Positions 3,001 to 12,000 of a DNA stretch of 36,310 nucleotides are shown piece by piece; the stretch's first letter is position 1; every line of letters begins with the position of its first letter. A program made the position numbers. The stretch spans positions 1 through 36,310 of the forward strand of contig JAYGFR010000250.1 of NCBI GenBank assembly GCA_046581755.1. The letters are read 5' to 3'. Source of the stretch: Nitrospinota bacterium. GTDB taxonomy: Bacteria; UBA8248.

Positions 3001-6000
3001 GCCCTGCCGGAACCGGCGATGGGTCTTTTGACGGAAATCGGGGCCCGGGTGGAACGCCGGGGTGTGGATGCATTTCGAGGCCCCTCGACGGCATCGCTCC
3101 TTTCCGAGCAGTTCGGCGAAGACGAAGACATCGATGCGGAAGCGAAAAGGCATCCATTGGCCTCAGCCGCCGCCGCCGCCCTGATTTCCTATATCCGGGA
3201 AAACCAGCCCGGCGATCTTCCCCATCTGCGGCCCATTTCCTTCCAGCGCCATTCGGACACCATGCTGTTCGACGCCGCCACCCAGCGGAACCTCGAACTG
3301 GTTCGATCCTCCCTGGACGGAGGACGAAAGGGAACGCTCCTGGATCTGATGGATGAAACGCTGACGGCCATGGGCGGACGCTTGATGAAGCGATGGGTTC
3401 TGTCGCCGCTAATTTTGGTGAAGGCTGTGGCGCGGCGCGCCGACGCGGTGGAGGAACTGGTCGAGGCCCGTGCCCGCCGCGATGCCCTGCGGGCCGCGCT
3501 CGGTGATATCCAGGACCTGGAACGGATCCTGGGGCGGGTCGGCATTCAAACAGCGAACGCGCGGGATCTTCTGGCGCTGGGAAACTCCCTCGCCGCCCTG
3601 CCGGCGCTTCGTGAGGCGCTGGATGATTCGCGTTCGGCTTTCCTGGCCGATATCCGGGACGAATGGGATTCGATGGAGGATTTATCGAAAGAACTCTGCG
3701 ATTCGCTTCAGGAAAGTCCTCCCCTGACGATTCGCGAGGGGGGGATGATTCGGGACGGAATGGACCCCGAACTCGACCGCCTGCGGGATGCGAGCCGGGA
3801 GGGGAAATCCTGGATCGAGTCCTACGTGATGAAGGAGCGCGAGCGGACCGGCCTGCCGCTGAAGGTAGGGTTCAACCGGGTATTCGGTTTTTATCTCGAG
3901 TTGTCAAAGCGTTATTCGGATGATGCCCCCATCGAATACACCCGAAAGCAGACTCTGGTGTCCGCCGAGCGTTACGTGACCCCGGAACTGAAAAAAATCG
4001 AGGACGATGTCCTGGGGGCCGAGGAGAAAGCCAAGGAACTCGAATATCTCCTCTTCGGGCGGCTCCGGGCCTGCGTCGCATCCGAATCCAGGCGAATCCT
4101 GCAGGCCGCGGACCGGGTAGGGCGCCTCGATGCCGCGGCATCGATGGCGGAACTCGCCTTCCTCAGGGGGTATGTGCGGCCCGAGATCGACGAGGGAGAG
4201 GGCATCGAAATTATCGAGGGGCGGCATCCCGTAATGGAGGCCTATCTTGCGGCGGCATTTGTTCCCAATGACCTGCGCATCGGGGGCGAGAGGCAAATCC
4301 TCATCGTGACGGGCCCCAACATGGCGGGAAAATCCACCTTTCTCCGCCAGGCGGCCCTGACGATTCTGATGGCGCAGATGGGCAGTTTCGTCCCCGCGAA
4401 ATCGGCTAGAATCGGTTTGGTGGATCGGGTGTTCACTCGCGTGGGCGCGCATGATCGCCTCCTCGAGGGGCAAAGCACCTTTATGGTGGAGATGATCGAG
4501 ACGGCCACCATCCTCCGGGAGGCCACTTCGAGGAGTTTCGTCGTACTCGATGAGGTGGGCCGGGGGACCAGCACCTACGATGGTGTGAGCATCGCCTGGT
4601 CCGTGGTCGAGTATCTCCACGAATCCCCCGAGCACCGGGCGCGCACCCTTTTTGCCACCCATTATCATGAGTTGGCCGAGCTTACGAAGCTCTGGCCCCG
4701 GGTGTCGAACCTGACGGTGGAGGTGCGGGAATGGGGGGATGAAGTGGTATTCCTTCGAAAAGTCAGTGAGGGGAGCAGCGACCGGAGCTACGGAATCCAT
4801 GTCGGCCGCCTGGCGGGCCTGCCCGATGAGGTCATCAGGCGGGCCAGGGAAATCCTCGCCGGACTCGAATCCGGAGAGAATTCGCCCGTTGCCCGCCCGA
4901 GGACGAGCGTTGGCAGAAAATCCGGCGGGCCGACGGAAAATCAGCTTCCTCTCTTTGAGGATGTATCATCGGCGATAGTGGCCGAGTTGAGCCGGATCGA
5001 CCCCGACAGGCTGAATCCGCGCGAGGCCTTGGATCTGCTTTACGATCTGAGCGCCCGGGCAAAAGGCCGGGGAAACAATTCATTGATTGAGCCCTGAGGG
5101 ATAAAGGGGATATAATCCTCCCTTGATTATGGGAGAGGGCATGAGCGGTAAGTTGATGTATTTCACCACATTATGGCGATCGATCTTAACGGCTGGCTCC
5201 ATTTTGTTGCTGGCGGGGACCGGGTTACCAGCCATTGGTGCATCGGAAAACGGGAGTTCGCCCGAGATTCGGGATATGGTGGTCGTGGAAAAGCAGGGCC
5301 GCCTCCTCGCATTTGTATCGTTGCGCGGTGCATTCTCGCCCAAGGTGTTCGAAGCTCTTCAAAGCGGGGTGACCACGCGTTTTACCTTCGAAATCGCCTT
5401 GATGCGGCACAGAGTCCTCATCTACGACACCGAGGTGGACCGCCAAACGCTGGTCCACATGATTAAATATGACACCCTGAAAAAGGCGTATACCTTCACC
5501 TCTCAAAATGGTTCGGATGAAAAAATCGAGAAAGTTACGAAAAGCCGGAAGGAAATGATGAACTGGATGGCGGATATCAATGGCCACGAGATAGCGCAGG
5601 TCGGCGATCTGAATCCCAACGAGCGCTATTATATCCAGGTCCGCGCCAAGCTTAATTCGGTGGATTTCTCATTTCCTTTCAACTACATGCTCTCCTTCCT
5701 GGCTAACAAGACACCGTGGGCCGCTTCTCCCCTCTTCGACGCAAAGGGCATGTAGGCGATGTATCCCACGAGCCTGGATTACGAGGAAATCACCGCACGC
5801 CGGCGAAAGAATATTCGAAGGGCGACTCTCGGCCTGATCGGCATTACGGTCCTTTTGTTGACCGCCTGGATTTATTTCAAGGAACTGGAGCCGGGAACGC
5901 CGCTACTGAACAATGTGGTGGTGTTCGCTCTCGTCAATCTCAACATCATCCTTTTGATGGTCTTGGGCCTGCTGATCGTTCGAAACCTCGTTCGTCTTTA

Positions 6001-9000: not shown

Positions 9001-12000
9001 TGGACCTGCCCAGGCCCATCGGCAAGCAATCATTCGAGTACCGCCACGATAGCGTCGAATCCTTTCAACGGGAAGTCGCTCCCGCACGGACATTTAGTTT
9101 TAGCTGGGAGCTCGAAGCGCTGGAGGAGATGGGCCTGGGGGAGGGCGGCCGCTGGGGCAATGTCATCCTTGTCGATAAGGAGCGAGTGGTAAACACCGAA
9201 CTTCGCTTCGAGGACGAGTTTGTGCGCCATAAAATTCTCGACATTTTCGGCGATATATATTTGTTGGGCCGCCCGGTGGAAGGAAAAATTATCGCCTCGC
9301 GTTCGGGCCACCGCCACAATGTCGGCCTGGTTCGGCTCATCGGCAAAGCCCTCCTTTAACCGGGAGGCATACCTGAAACGACTTCTCCAAAGGAACCGGA
9401 ATTGAGCGATCGACCGGCCCTGACCTACCAATCGGCAGGCGTGGATGTGGCCGCCGGTGAGAATTTCGCCGATAAAATCGCAAGCGCCTTGCGCTCCACC
9501 CACGGGGCGCATTCGAGCCGCATTCTCGGAGACGGATCCGAATTCGCGGGGTTGTTCCGGCTCGGAGAGGGGTTGCGCGATCCCATCCTCGTTTCGGGGA
9601 CGGACGGCGTGGGCACCAAACTGAAGGTAGCCCAGCGCCTCGGCCGGCACGCCACCATCGGAATCGACCTGGTGGCGATGTGCGTGAACGATGTCTTGAC
9701 GTCGGGGGCCACCCCCTTATTTTTCCTCGACTATATCGCGGCTGGAAAGCTTGATTCCGAAGTGCTGGCTGCGGTCGTCGGCGGCATTGCCGATGGTTGC
9801 CGGCAGGCGGGGTGCGTTTTACTCGGTGGGGAAACCGCCGAAATGCCCGATTTTTACGAGCCCGGCGTGTACGACATCTCAGGGTTTGCGGTCGGCGTCG
9901 CCGAGGGGAAAAAAATTTTGGGGGCTGCGAAAGTTCGAGCGGGAGATGTGCTCATCGGCTTGCCCTCATCGGGCCTGCACAGCAACGGCTACTCCCTGGT
10001 CCGCCGAGTGTTCGAGGATCCGGCCGAATGGGCATCGGAATCAGTTTTTTCCAAACCGGGACCCACTCTGGGAGAGATACTGCTCGAGCCCACCAAGATA
10101 TACGCGGGAGCCATCGCCGCCATTCGTGAGAACCCGGCGGTGCACGCGGTTTCCCATATAACGGGGGGCGGCCTTCCCGGAAACGTCGCCCGGATCATGC
10201 CGCCCGGATCGCAGGCGGTGTTGAAACCCCCAAGCTGGCAGGTGCCCGGAATTTTTCGAGAAATCGAAAAACGTGGACCCGTCGAGCGCGCCGAAATGTT
10301 CAGGACCTTCAATATGGGTCTCGGGATGGTCATTGCGGTAAGCCCCGGGGGGGCCGATGGCGCATTGGCGGCATTGGCAGAGGCTGGCGAGACCCCTTGC
10401 CGGGCCGGAGAGGTTCGAGAGGGGAAGGTTGGCGGTGCCGTGCGCATCGAGGGAGTGGACCTGTGAGCCCGGAAGGAATGGGAGACAGACTCCGGGTGGC
10501 CGTTCTGGCCTCTGGCCGGGGTTCGAATCTTCAGGCCCTGCTCGATGCGGCCCGCGAGCCGTCGTTTCCAGCCAAAATGGTGTGCGTTTTCAGCGATAAA
10601 TCGGACGCCCCTGCGCTGGATCGTGCCAGAAAAGCCGGCATGCTCGCCCGGTGGGTGGACCCTTCCGGTGATGGGTACGAGAATCGCCTGGCCCGGGAAA
10701 TCGAGGCGGAAAACTGTGGATTAATCTGTTGCGCGGGGTATATGCGTATTTTATCGCCCGAATTTGTCACGCGTTTTTCGGGAAGAATTATCAATATTCA
10801 TCCCTCGCTTTTGCCGAGTTTTCCCGGATTGCACGCCCAGCGAAAGGCCCTCCGCGCAAGGGTTCGAATTGCGGGATGCACCGTCCATTATATCGACGAG
10901 GGCGTGGATACAGGGCCCATCATTCTTCAGGCTGCGGTGCCGGTTCTATCGGATGACGATGAGGATACACTTTCCGCGAGAATTCTTGGATTCGAGCATC
11001 AAATTTACCCGCTGGCCGTCAGCCTCATCGCCGAGGGCAAGGTTCGCCTGGAAAAAAACCGGGTCTGCCTGGAAAATATGCACGAAGGCGTTGTCGATGG
11101 ATTCTGGTCTCCACCTACAGGTCTCTCGCCGTCTTCGCGGCAGGGTTCCCGCTTGATTTGAATAAATCTCAAATCAAATATCGCGGAAAAGAAACAAAAA
11201 TGCCTGTAAGCGATGGAATTTAGTGACCTTTCTCGCATTATGGATTATTCATTCCTTGACAGGCATCAGGGGGCGTTTCTAGAATGCGGTGGATGGCTGA
11301 AAAGGGCATTTTAATGAGGGTAAACACGCAATTGCGGGCTAATCGGGGGGAGGTTTTCGGGAGCGCACTCATCGTATTGCTCTTGTTTTATGCGCCGGCC
11401 GCAGTCGGCGGCGCGGAACTTTCTCCGTCCAATTCGCGGCGGGGCCAGGCCGATCGACGAACCGCGGAGATTATCTCCCGTATCCAGAAAAAATATGAAG
11501 AGACCCGGACGCTAAAGGCCAATTTTGAGCAAGAAAACCACCTCCGCTCTCTCGGCCGGATTACACGCTCGAAAGGGCGAATCATTCTTTACAAGCCCGG
11601 GCGGATTCGGGCCGTTTACACCGAGCCGGAAAACCAGCTCATCGTCTCGAACGGCAAACGGCTCTGGATTCACACGCCTCGCCTCAACCAGGTGATCGTG
11701 AGCGACTTGGGGGGGCGGGGCGCGGCTTCGTTGCCCCTACTTTTTCTTGCCGGCAAGGGAAAGCTGACCCGGGAGTTTCGTATCGAGTTGGTGGACGAGG
11801 GTGTCTCCCCGAGGAAAGGGGGGGCATGGAAAGCGGGTCAGCCCCACCGTCTTTTGCTCAAGCCGGTTCGCTCCGTGGCGGGGTTCCAGAAAATGTGGAT
11901 CGAGGCCGATCCGGTAAGCTTTCAGATTTCCGGCATCGAATACGCCGATGAATTAGGGAATACAACCCGCATACGATTTTCGAATATCAATGAAAATGCC

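Follow-up and report, generated by a model that had tools for sequence, protein, structure and literature searches.

A receiver-LpxC fusion in Nitrospinota points to a transcriptional switch probably turned into post-translational control of LpxC

In a Nitrospinota bacterium (assembly GCA_046581755.1), LpxC is joined to an NtrX-type receiver domain. [quoted passage not shown] We analyzed the window around its gene, that is, the whole stretch of 36,310 nucleotides from contig JAYGFR010000250.1. Comparison with relatives suggests, as the best and in our view probable reading, that a transcriptional switch has been turned into post-translational control of LpxC. The receiver stems from a regulator that likely once switched lpxC on; hence, the enzyme is probably under the direct control of the neighboring membrane sensor.

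Results

The fusion gene (8016..9359, forward strand) is a single open reading frame of 447 amino acids. It begins with a TTG codon, overlaps the stop codon of ntrY (8021-8023) and is preceded by a sequence resembling a Shine-Dalgarno site, GAGAGGA (8000..8006, forward strand), 9 nt upstream of the start. Pfam recognizes a Response_reg domain at residues 6-113 (E 4e-30) and an LpxC domain at residues 175-442 (E 5e-75). The LpxC part matches PF03331 over its full length with 252.8 bits (cut-off 27) and NCBIfam TIGR00325 (lpxC) with 213.8 bits (cut-off 187.25). The NtrX model NF051870 covers residues 5-127 only and stays, with 124 bits, below its cut-off of 600. In the genome, which is 96.5% complete, there is one PF03331 match. 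The preliminary description is thereby confirmed in its central point, a sole lpxC in the form of a receiver-LpxC fusion directly after an NtrY-type kinase, and the motifs and NCBIfam matches (lpxC 175-442, NtrX 5-127) that it had reported were found again.

The receiver (residues 6-113; 8031..8354, forward strand) has, as judged from its sequence, a complete set of phosphorylation residues: D10, D11, D54 (codon 8175-8177), S82 and K104. The motifs DDE, D54 and K104 as well as TIEHL, HKILD and GH of the LpxC part are readable. The receiver is the genome's best match to an intact NtrX receiver (61%, 147 bits; the next reaches 99). In a tree of 119 columns only, 78 fused and 11 free NtrX receivers fall into one group (SH-aLRT 97), which includes three long-branch intruders. 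An unconserved linker follows (about residues 121-174; 8376..8537, forward strand); in long relatives, this place is taken by a degenerate AAA+ domain and a Fis-like helix-turn-helix. The LpxC domain (residues 175-442; 8538..9341, forward strand) holds E246, H247, H405, K406, D409, D413 and H432. E246, H247, H405, K406, D409 and H432 align to Aquifex-type PDB sequences and correspond to the zinc ligands and catalytic residues E78, H79, H238, K239, D242 and H265 of E. coli LpxC. The protein ends 5 residues past this domain and has no C-terminal tail. A C-terminal FabZ domain is absent (LpxC-FabZ model NF009667, 181.9 bits, cut-off 465), and Pfam finds no DNA-binding domain in the 447 residues; the AAA+ domain that would bear sigma54 activator motifs is missing. 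Profile and residues together predict an LpxC deacetylase. The genome also holds lpxA, an lpxD-like and an lpxI-like gene, lpxB, a kdtA-like gene and lpxK on contig C344.

Upstream lies the gene of an NtrY-type membrane histidine kinase of 754 amino acids (5759..8023, forward strand) with NtrY_N (PF19312), HAMP, PAS, HisKA and HATPase_c domains. Its H, N, G1 and G2 boxes are all present and the phospho-accepting histidine, H530, is encoded at 7346. The kinase H-box and the helix-1 signature of the receiver resemble those of free NtrX/NtrY pairs, and NtrY is the likely, predicted phosphate donor of the fusion receiver. A gene for a DUF4390 (PlrP-like) protein (5123..5755, forward strand; PF14334, E 1.6e-28; alternative start ATG at 5141) precedes ntrY. 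It sits ahead of ntrY in fused and unfused relatives alike, and also in 21 of 30 loci where the fusion is unlinked. By analogy with a Bordetella system (PMC13001219), its product is likely a third component of the sensor and may restrain the phosphatase activity of the kinase. A sigma70-like promoter candidate (5087..5116, forward strand; TTGAGC, 18 nt, TATAAT; 10/12 matches) precedes the DUF4390 gene. Since two such sites were found in the region where 1.8 are expected, only its position favors this weak candidate, and inspection by eye of six relatives did not reveal it as a promoter there. The sigma54 consensus is absent from the window (0 sites, 1.55 expected). RNA runs yielded short contigs only, at a depth of 2-10 and without strand or level. 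The window also contains an FtsH-like gene, recognized by sequence, at 18470-20398.

The fusion is phylum-wide, as had been proposed. An LpxC match was obtained in 50 of 51 genomes of the phylum; 45 matches are full-length, of which 44 lie in frames of 432-755 amino acids and the remaining one runs off a contig end. The top 120 homologues all carry PF03331 and PF00072, in line with the earlier statement on top hits. Its occurrence in other phyla was also borne out: the clade of fused LpxC comprises at least five phyla plus the cultured Nitrospina gracilis, which has a long form (CCQ92063.1), and records named Spirochaetota, none of them from Brachyspira, include fusions. When genome contigs were searched with LpxC, most of the matches listed (at least 600) were unfused. 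In the LpxC tree, 83 fused domains lie on one side of a branch with an SH-aLRT of 100, and this single clade was recovered again with divergent representatives added. The tree thus indicates that the sampled fused LpxC domains share one origin. One clade-like LpxC without receiver (P0362) sits on contigs up to 35.8 kb. Eight clade members lack a receiver: six are fragments that retain traces of AAA+ or helix-turn-helix, one comes from a contig of 902 bases and one is garbled. We found no confirmed split of the fusion back into two genes. Two genomes (G215 and G342) carry a canonical lpxC next to ntrY and a fusion as well.

A position of the fusion behind its kinase holds for the window but not for many relatives: in the Desulfobacterota sample, ntrY adjoins 12 of 39 fetched fusions, some of which have short flanks. 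The kinase itself is kept. Of 40 genomes whose fusion is unlinked, 39 have an NtrY match, the histidine is conserved in 30/30 fetched unlinked NtrY proteins, and none of these 30 loci has a receiver gene downstream of ntrY. The idea that the fusion replaces LapB was rejected, as many fused genomes have near-full-length LapA-LapB matches and many unfused ones have no such match at E 1e-12 (41/80 matched).

Both domains are intact. Among 501 unique fusions, the phospho-accepting D54 is found in 499 and missing in two, K104 is found in 500, and LpxC E246, H247, H405, K406, D409, D413 and H432 are invariant. D54 is also present in 60/60 short forms. Over 13 pairs, pN was 0.04-0.19 for the receiver and 0.05-0.16 for LpxC, with pS of 0.46-0.88; receiver and LpxC are under similar purifying selection. 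Two LpxC residues, G196 (500/501) and K263 (488/501), are near-invariant in fusions only. A C-terminal LpxC tail of at least 15 residues occurs in 0/92 fused and 81/98 unfused proteins, and 17/98 LpxC proteins are tail-less without being fused. Mean-field covariation, underpowered with only 151 effective sequences, gave no coherent contacts for a receiver-LpxC interface, and inter-domain pairs made up 30 of the top 100, fewer than the 43 expected. The linker measures 21-65 residues in 45 of 47 short forms and has a pN of 0.35-0.74 in short-form comparisons. This variation in length and sequence argues against a rigid coupling of receiver and LpxC.

The fusion had been described in two forms, a receiver-LpxC protein and one containing full NtrX. 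The former stands, whereas the long form does not qualify as full NtrX, since the activator motifs are gone from its AAA+ core. Scored with patterns that we presumed for the AAA+ motifs, GAFTGA occurs in 0/63 long forms (free NtrX 7/10, so that it is missing in 3/10 of these too), the Walker B DE in 3/63 (9/10), the R-finger in 0/63 (8/10) and the sensor II Arg in 1/63 (10/10). Walker A is kept in 60/63, a Fis-like helix-turn-helix is often present, and one form (L210) has kept the helix-turn-helix with the AAA+ domain gone. From these motifs, the long form is predicted not to be a working NtrX or sigma54 activator. A single clade of short forms is rejected (AU p 4e-6), with a minimum of five changes forced, and the sister sequence of the window's short form is a long form. 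The tree thus implies that the middle, with its AAA+ and DNA-binding part, was deleted at least five times, the receiver being retained each time. In two long-long pairs the middle has a pN of 0.15 and 0.26, which indicates some constraint.

Unfused relatives are often arranged lpxC-ntrY-ntrX. A sigma54-like site was found at 21/45 unfused lpxC loci of the Desulfobacterota sample (0.4 expected) and at 19/62 other unfused loci (1.1 expected). Fused loci have 1/83 (1.1 expected), or 1/58 in a fair promoter comparison, as 25 of the 83 have ntrY coding DNA upstream. According to the available text of PMC3333781, the sigma54 regulator DVU2934 of Desulfovibrio vulgaris has lpxC as its single target, and in Syntrophobacter fumaroxidans lpxC lies directly upstream of the operon orthologous to the D. 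vulgaris system; orthology of DVU2934 to the NtrX genes considered here is based on the statement of that paper and on gene order. Ancestrally, the regulator appears to have had lpxC itself as its target.

Discussion

Direct two-component control of LpxC, as the preliminary description had suggested, accounts best for the comparative data: both domains are intact and subject to similar selection, the kinase persists even where unlinked, and transcription factor parts were lost repeatedly. This reading is inferential, and a fixed receiver-LpxC interface left no sign in the underpowered covariation analysis. The DUF4390 gene, the decay of the AAA+ core and the published tie of a sigma54 regulator to lpxC in D. 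vulgaris are additions to that description. We tentatively propose, at somewhat less than an even chance, that an intact LpxC sits on a variable tether to an NtrX-type receiver and that phosphorylation set by NtrY turns enzyme activity up or down. An NtrX activating lpxC at a sigma54 promoter would have become joined, in one event, to the target it controlled. It would then have lost its contact to sigma54 and its ATPase motifs and later, many times, the AAA+ and DNA-binding parts. NtrY, as kinase or phosphatase and probably tuned by the DUF4390 protein, likely sets receiver phosphorylation, and the tethered receiver may dock on LpxC or dimerize according to its phosphorylation state. A change of LpxC activity by binding has been described for LapB and MurA (available parts of PMC12444477). 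Phosphorylation would most likely raise LpxC output, in keeping with the presumed action of the ancestral regulator. Since NtrYX of Rhodobacter sphaeroides and Caulobacter lowers lpxC transcription, the sign of control is uncertain.

NtrY might also act via the receiver on the half-life or membrane recruitment of LpxC and not on catalysis; the receiver would then serve as a degradation signal that depends on phosphorylation, or as the point at which the membrane kinase holds the enzyme. We regard this as rather unlikely, even though proteolysis is the E. coli mode of LpxC control and Neisseria Ght localizes LpxC to the membrane, promoting LPS synthesis (available parts of PMC12444477). The loose linker and the absent interface signal would fit, as would the FtsH-like gene within the window (18470-20398) and the tail, found in 0/92 fused against 81/98 unfused proteins. 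With the tail gone, a degron of the E. coli type is unlikely, and a different signal could take its place. However, unfused LpxC without tail also exists (17/98), the fusion does not track LapB loss, with full LapA-LapB matches in many fused genomes, and the invariant LpxC residues specific to fusions hint at a docking surface. Control of activity and control of half-life or recruitment taken together, direct post-translational control in any form seems probable from the sequence comparisons. It is improbable that LpxC is an unregulated passenger, its fusion coupling expression only and the phosphorylated receiver serving as phosphate sink, in NtrY feedback or for a partner. Selection on the receiver speaks for function but not for which target, Bordetella PlrR~P is essential for other reasons (available text of PMC13001219), and G215 and G342 have the canonical lpxC beside ntrY plus a fusion. 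Yet the short form offers no further output domain, no re-split was confirmed, and the ancestral target appears to be lpxC.

We give very little credit to a protein that is, or recently was, both enzyme and DNA-binding regulator, with the short-form receiver as a leftover. The retained Walker A, the frequent helix-turn-helix, its persistence in L210 and the constraint on the middle of two long-long pairs would suit such a protein, and alphaproteobacterial NtrX regulates without GAFTGA. But the window's protein has no DNA-binding domain, D54 is present in all 60 short forms scored, the receivers of short forms have a pN equal to that of their LpxC, and five or more separate deletions removed the middle. 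An artifact of assembly, or a second product in which LpxC is translated by itself from an internal start, is scarcely credible given 501 unique fusions, some in complete genomes. The linker does contain an in-frame GTG (8502) with an AGGAGG (8485-8490) 11 nt upstream, and the aligned residue is Met in one close relative. Against this, a Shine-Dalgarno start just before LpxC occurs in 12/92 fused and 39/108 unfused loci, in a test that detects only about one third of true starts.

Response regulators with enzymatic outputs, in which a receiver is joined to an enzyme, include CheB, PleD and RpfG. To our knowledge, such outputs are mostly signaling enzymes and not an essential envelope-building enzyme. 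D. vulgaris DVU2931/DVU2934 (Rajeev 2011, PMC3333781, as far as available) is likewise a two-component system dedicated to lpxC, and the S. fumaroxidans order given there equals that of our unfused loci. In D. vulgaris, lpxC is transcribed from a sigma54 promoter and its regulator binds DNA as a protein of its own; in the window, the regulator is fused to the enzyme and lacks AAA+ and DNA-binding domains, and no sigma54 consensus is present. R. sphaeroides and Caulobacter share the NtrY-type kinase, the NtrX-type receiver, an NtrX without GAFTGA as in the fusions, and the link to lpxC and LPS level (available parts of PMC7240162, PMC12444477 and bioRxiv 2021.04.17.440287). According to these, control is transcriptional, broad and inhibitory, in R. 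sphaeroides indirect, and LpxC is a separate protein. In Bordetella PlrP-PlrS-PlrR (PMC13001219, available text), a DUF4390 gene directly precedes an NtrY-family kinase and a regulator, as here, but PlrR is not fused to an enzyme; the main text mentions neither "lpxC" nor "lipid A". LapB/FtsH in E. coli, MurA in P. aeruginosa and Ght in Neisseria also control LpxC post-translationally, in part by changing its activity through binding, but act in trans, none being a phospho-acceptor, and the fused enzyme lacks the C-terminal tail (PMC12444477, parts available). The LpxC-FabZ fusion (PMC3087551, in part) likewise joins LpxC to a second domain, in that case a C-terminal metabolic partner, of which the window's protein has none.

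In agreement with the earlier searches, we found no description of it in the open-access literature, including the text supplements of PMC4558063; subscription reviews of response regulator output domains or bioRxiv supplements may mention it. In its available passages, a 2025 review presents LpxC control as proteolysis, partner binding and broad transcriptional control, and NtrYX not as a specific modulator of LpxC.

With a receiver fused to the enzyme, control by phosphorylation would be direct and could be read out simply as enzyme activity; the signal sensed by NtrY and the DUF4390 protein would thereby become testable. The family spans marine nitrite oxidizers and many uncultured lineages, and offers a traceable case of a transcriptional circuit becoming a post-translational one. 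With a chance that we place just short of even, a regulator absorbed its own target in a deep clade of at least five phyla, converting sigma54-dependent lpxC control into a phospho-switched LpxC on a DUF4390-NtrY envelope sensor, with transcription factor parts repeatedly discarded. If true, lipid A synthesis would have one more basic mode of control, and an ancestral role of NtrY/NtrX in supplying the outer membrane would be indicated.

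Results

Context of the fusion gene

The 447-aa frame at 8016-9359 on the plus strand holds the only match to PF03331 in the genome. Pfam places a receiver domain at residues 6-113 and the LpxC domain at residues 175-442. The protein passes the NCBIfam lpxC model, and its match to the NCBIfam NtrX model is confined to the first 127 residues. Its TTG start overlaps the stop codon of the kinase gene and is preceded by a Shine-Dalgarno-like site at 8000-8006. The operon runs in the order mutS, DUF4390, ntrY, fusion, purM, purN. When an intact NtrX receiver was used as query, the best match in the genome was the fusion receiver, and hence no separate ntrX was found.

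A candidate internal start was observed in the linker (8485-8504), with AGGAGG 11 nt 5' of an in-frame GTG; it is conserved in one close relative and no further. An rpoN gene is present 9-18 kb downstream on the same contig, together with ftsH-like, lptC, lptA and lptB genes identified by sequence (18470-20398 and 23666-27228). Directly 5' of mutS lies a LapA-domain gene (1962-2369) that is not followed by lapB. Contig C129 encodes a separate LapA-TPR protein (L166:460-1749), which lacks the C-terminal zinc ribbon, and same-family matches to it end near residue 330 of 452. The remaining lipid A pathway genes are located on contig C344, whose G+C content (64% vs 58% in the window) is within the range of the assembly. 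There, at about 24800-36100 (loci L308-L311), we found a cluster of bamA, skp, lpxD, fabZ, lpxA, a Gfo/Idh/MocA-like oxidoreductase, lpxI, lpxB, kdtA and lpxK. The oxidoreductase may correspond to GnnA, which would imply a diamino lipid A backbone.

Distribution of the fusion

The receiver-LpxC fusion is real and widespread. LpxC was matched in 50 of 51 genomes from the phylum of the window, where the nearest named records are labeled Nitrospinota or Ca. Tectomicrobia; frames of 432-755 aa enclose 44 of the 45 full-length matches. Cultured Nitrospina gracilis 3/211 has a long form of 675 aa on record (CCQ92063.1). A second phylum has matches in 108 of 120 genomes, with 102/104 full-length matches within frames of at least 460 aa; receiver and LpxC shared one frame in 17 of 19 fetched loci, the other two being cut off. 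A 251-genome sample from the phylum of a Desulfobacteraceae genome gave 239 matching genomes. Among 80 lower-scoring matches re-listed from it, 59 had frames of at least 417 aa. All 39 fetched loci contained the fusion, and a high-scoring long-frame control did not. Within the phylum to which an Acidobacteriota genome belongs, the match spans both domains in 17/201, and a fifth phylum has frames of 410-532 aa in 41/81 (receiver checked in two genomes). Going by database names, the fusion also occurs in SAR324, Nitrospirota, Spirochaetota, Binatia and Dadabacteria; Atlas clusters extend the list to Myxococcota.

Receiver domains coupled to an enzymatic output are a familiar class of protein, and lpxC is already known to be controlled by NtrYX at the level of transcription. 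The fusion itself is apparently undescribed: public databases list the domain pair simply as LpxC or NtrX, a search of open-access text yielded no description, and the words "fusion" and "fused" are absent from the 2025 lipid A review.

Conservation of both domains and decay of the long form

Judged by their key residues, receiver and LpxC are both intact. In a set of 501 unique full-length fusions, the phospho-acceptor D54 is present in 499, K104 in 500, and the LpxC residues E246, H247, H405, K406, D409, D413 and H432 without exception. Receiver and LpxC change similarly slowly in 13 pairs of relatives (pN 0.04-0.19 vs 0.05-0.16), with synonymous sites near saturation. Pairwise comparison of relatives revealed a fast-changing linker in the short form, 21-65 aa long in 45 of 47 proteins.

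The preliminary description had called the long form a full NtrX, which is overstated. Using motif patterns, we found Walker A in 60 of 63 long proteins, the Walker B DE in 3, the sensor II Arg in 1, and GAFTGA and the R-finger motif in none; the counts for ten free NtrX proteins were 10, 9, 10, 7 and 8. Many long forms keep the Fis-like helix-turn-helix. By these motifs the long form has been disabled as an activator. Two proteins of about 510 aa are intermediate (L210:1154-2695 and L211:734-2257); the former retains the Fis-type helix-turn-helix and has lost the AAA+ domain. In genome G025 (L025:1489-3494) the receiver and AAA+-LpxC parts of a long form lie in different frames, which reflects either an error in sequencing or a true frameshift.

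Origin of the fusion

The LpxC tree points to a single origin. All 83 fused domains lie together beyond a long branch (SH-aLRT 100) in a tree of 134 domains, a subset of 200 collected that excluded near-duplicates and many unfused entries. The clade persisted when divergent representatives from a 50%-identity library were added, with 59 fused and 8 receiver-less members. Of the latter, six are fragments with AAA+ or helix-turn-helix remnants, one comes from a contig of 902 bases and the last is garbled. Two further clade-like receiver-less proteins were not part of this tree: one is from a contig of 925 bases, and the other is P0362, a 283-aa LpxC from contigs of up to 35.8 kb that resembles the SAR324/Nitrospirota-type fused subclade and may be a true secondary loss of the receiver or a paralogue. 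In the receiver tree, which has few columns and three long-branch intruders, free and fused NtrX receivers cluster (SH-aLRT 97).

A single clade of short forms was rejected for 30 chosen sequences using receiver and LpxC columns (AU p 4e-6), with at least five changes forced, and the group of the window is sister to a long form (support 100/98). The middle part has been lost repeatedly. Genomes G215 (L327, L328) and G342 (L329, L351) each combine a canonical lpxC next to ntrY with a separate fusion; the fetched DNA downstream of this lpxC-ntrY contained no receiver gene. Genome G704 has two fusion copies. These coexisting or duplicate genes may reflect contamination.

In unfused relatives a frequent order is lpxC, DUF4390, ntrY, ntrX (four named loci). 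Directly behind lpxC, ntrY was found in 7 of 20 high-scoring loci, six of which had ntrX in the fetched DNA. This order differs from that of the fused loci, so that a rearrangement is needed; no intermediate was seen among the loci compared. Using a sigma54 consensus, at most 200 upstream bases and a threshold fixed beforehand, we detected sigma54-like sites before 21 of 45 unfused lpxC genes of the Desulfobacterota sample (expected 0.4) and, outside this sample, before 19 of 62 (loci among L044-L111; expected 1.1), 18 of these 19 titled Acidobacteriota. Fusions had such sites in 1/58 free-standing cases and 0/25 behind ntrY. Passages of Rajeev et al. (2011; PMC3333781) report lpxC, with a predicted sigma54 promoter, as the single target of Desulfovibrio vulgaris DVU2934 by gel-shift and DAP-chip, and an orthologous operon directly downstream of lpxC in S. 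fumaroxidans. We infer that DVU2934 is orthologous to the NtrX genes of the unfused loci. The main text of a 2025 sigma54 regulon paper (PMC12316311) does not contain "lpxC". In R. sphaeroides, lpxC transcripts rose 8.8-fold on ntrYX loss, an indirect effect according to passages of PMC7240162.

Retention of the kinase

Where the fusion lies apart from ntrY, a single NtrY match remains in 39 of 40 genomes. The phospho-His is kept in all 30 unlinked ntrY loci fetched. DUF4390 was matched upstream in 21 of them, and no receiver gene was found in the 1.1-1.5 kb scanned downstream of any (299 bases in one). Five further genomes were similar, although one of them has a CheB-like gene on the other strand; a sixth had no NtrY match. 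The receiver helix-1 signature and the kinase H-box agree with those of free NtrX/NtrY pairs. Passages on Bordetella PlrP, a DUF4390 protein (PMC13001219), and Caulobacter NtrZ (bioRxiv 2021.04.17.440287) describe restraint of NtrY-family phosphatase activity; by this analogy, NtrY may act on the fusion mainly as a phosphatase.

Discussion

The fusion has a defined anatomy, conserved domains, a single origin and a record of repeated deletions. In the mechanism that we propose, NtrY would set the phosphorylation of D54 in the fused receiver, and this state would alter LpxC output. What the output is could be LpxC activity, a tentative reading to which we give somewhat less than even weight. LpxC has been described as responding to bound partners (PMC12444477), and V183, T195, G196, H253, Y255, K263, C279, E318, L385 and T394 are near-invariant in fusions and absent from unfused enzymes, although the long stem branch alone could also have yielded such residues. 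Control of stability or location is a possible alternative, consistent with the loose linker, the absence of a C-terminal LpxC tail (present in 0/92 fused vs 81/98 unfused) and covariation, which found no receiver-LpxC interface with 151 effective sequences. Replacement of LapB by the fusion was also considered and did not hold up in a survey of LapA-LapB matches.

By either route, the direct control to which the preliminary description had pointed is a probable reading: in bacteria carrying the fusion, LpxC is likely to be under direct post-translational control.
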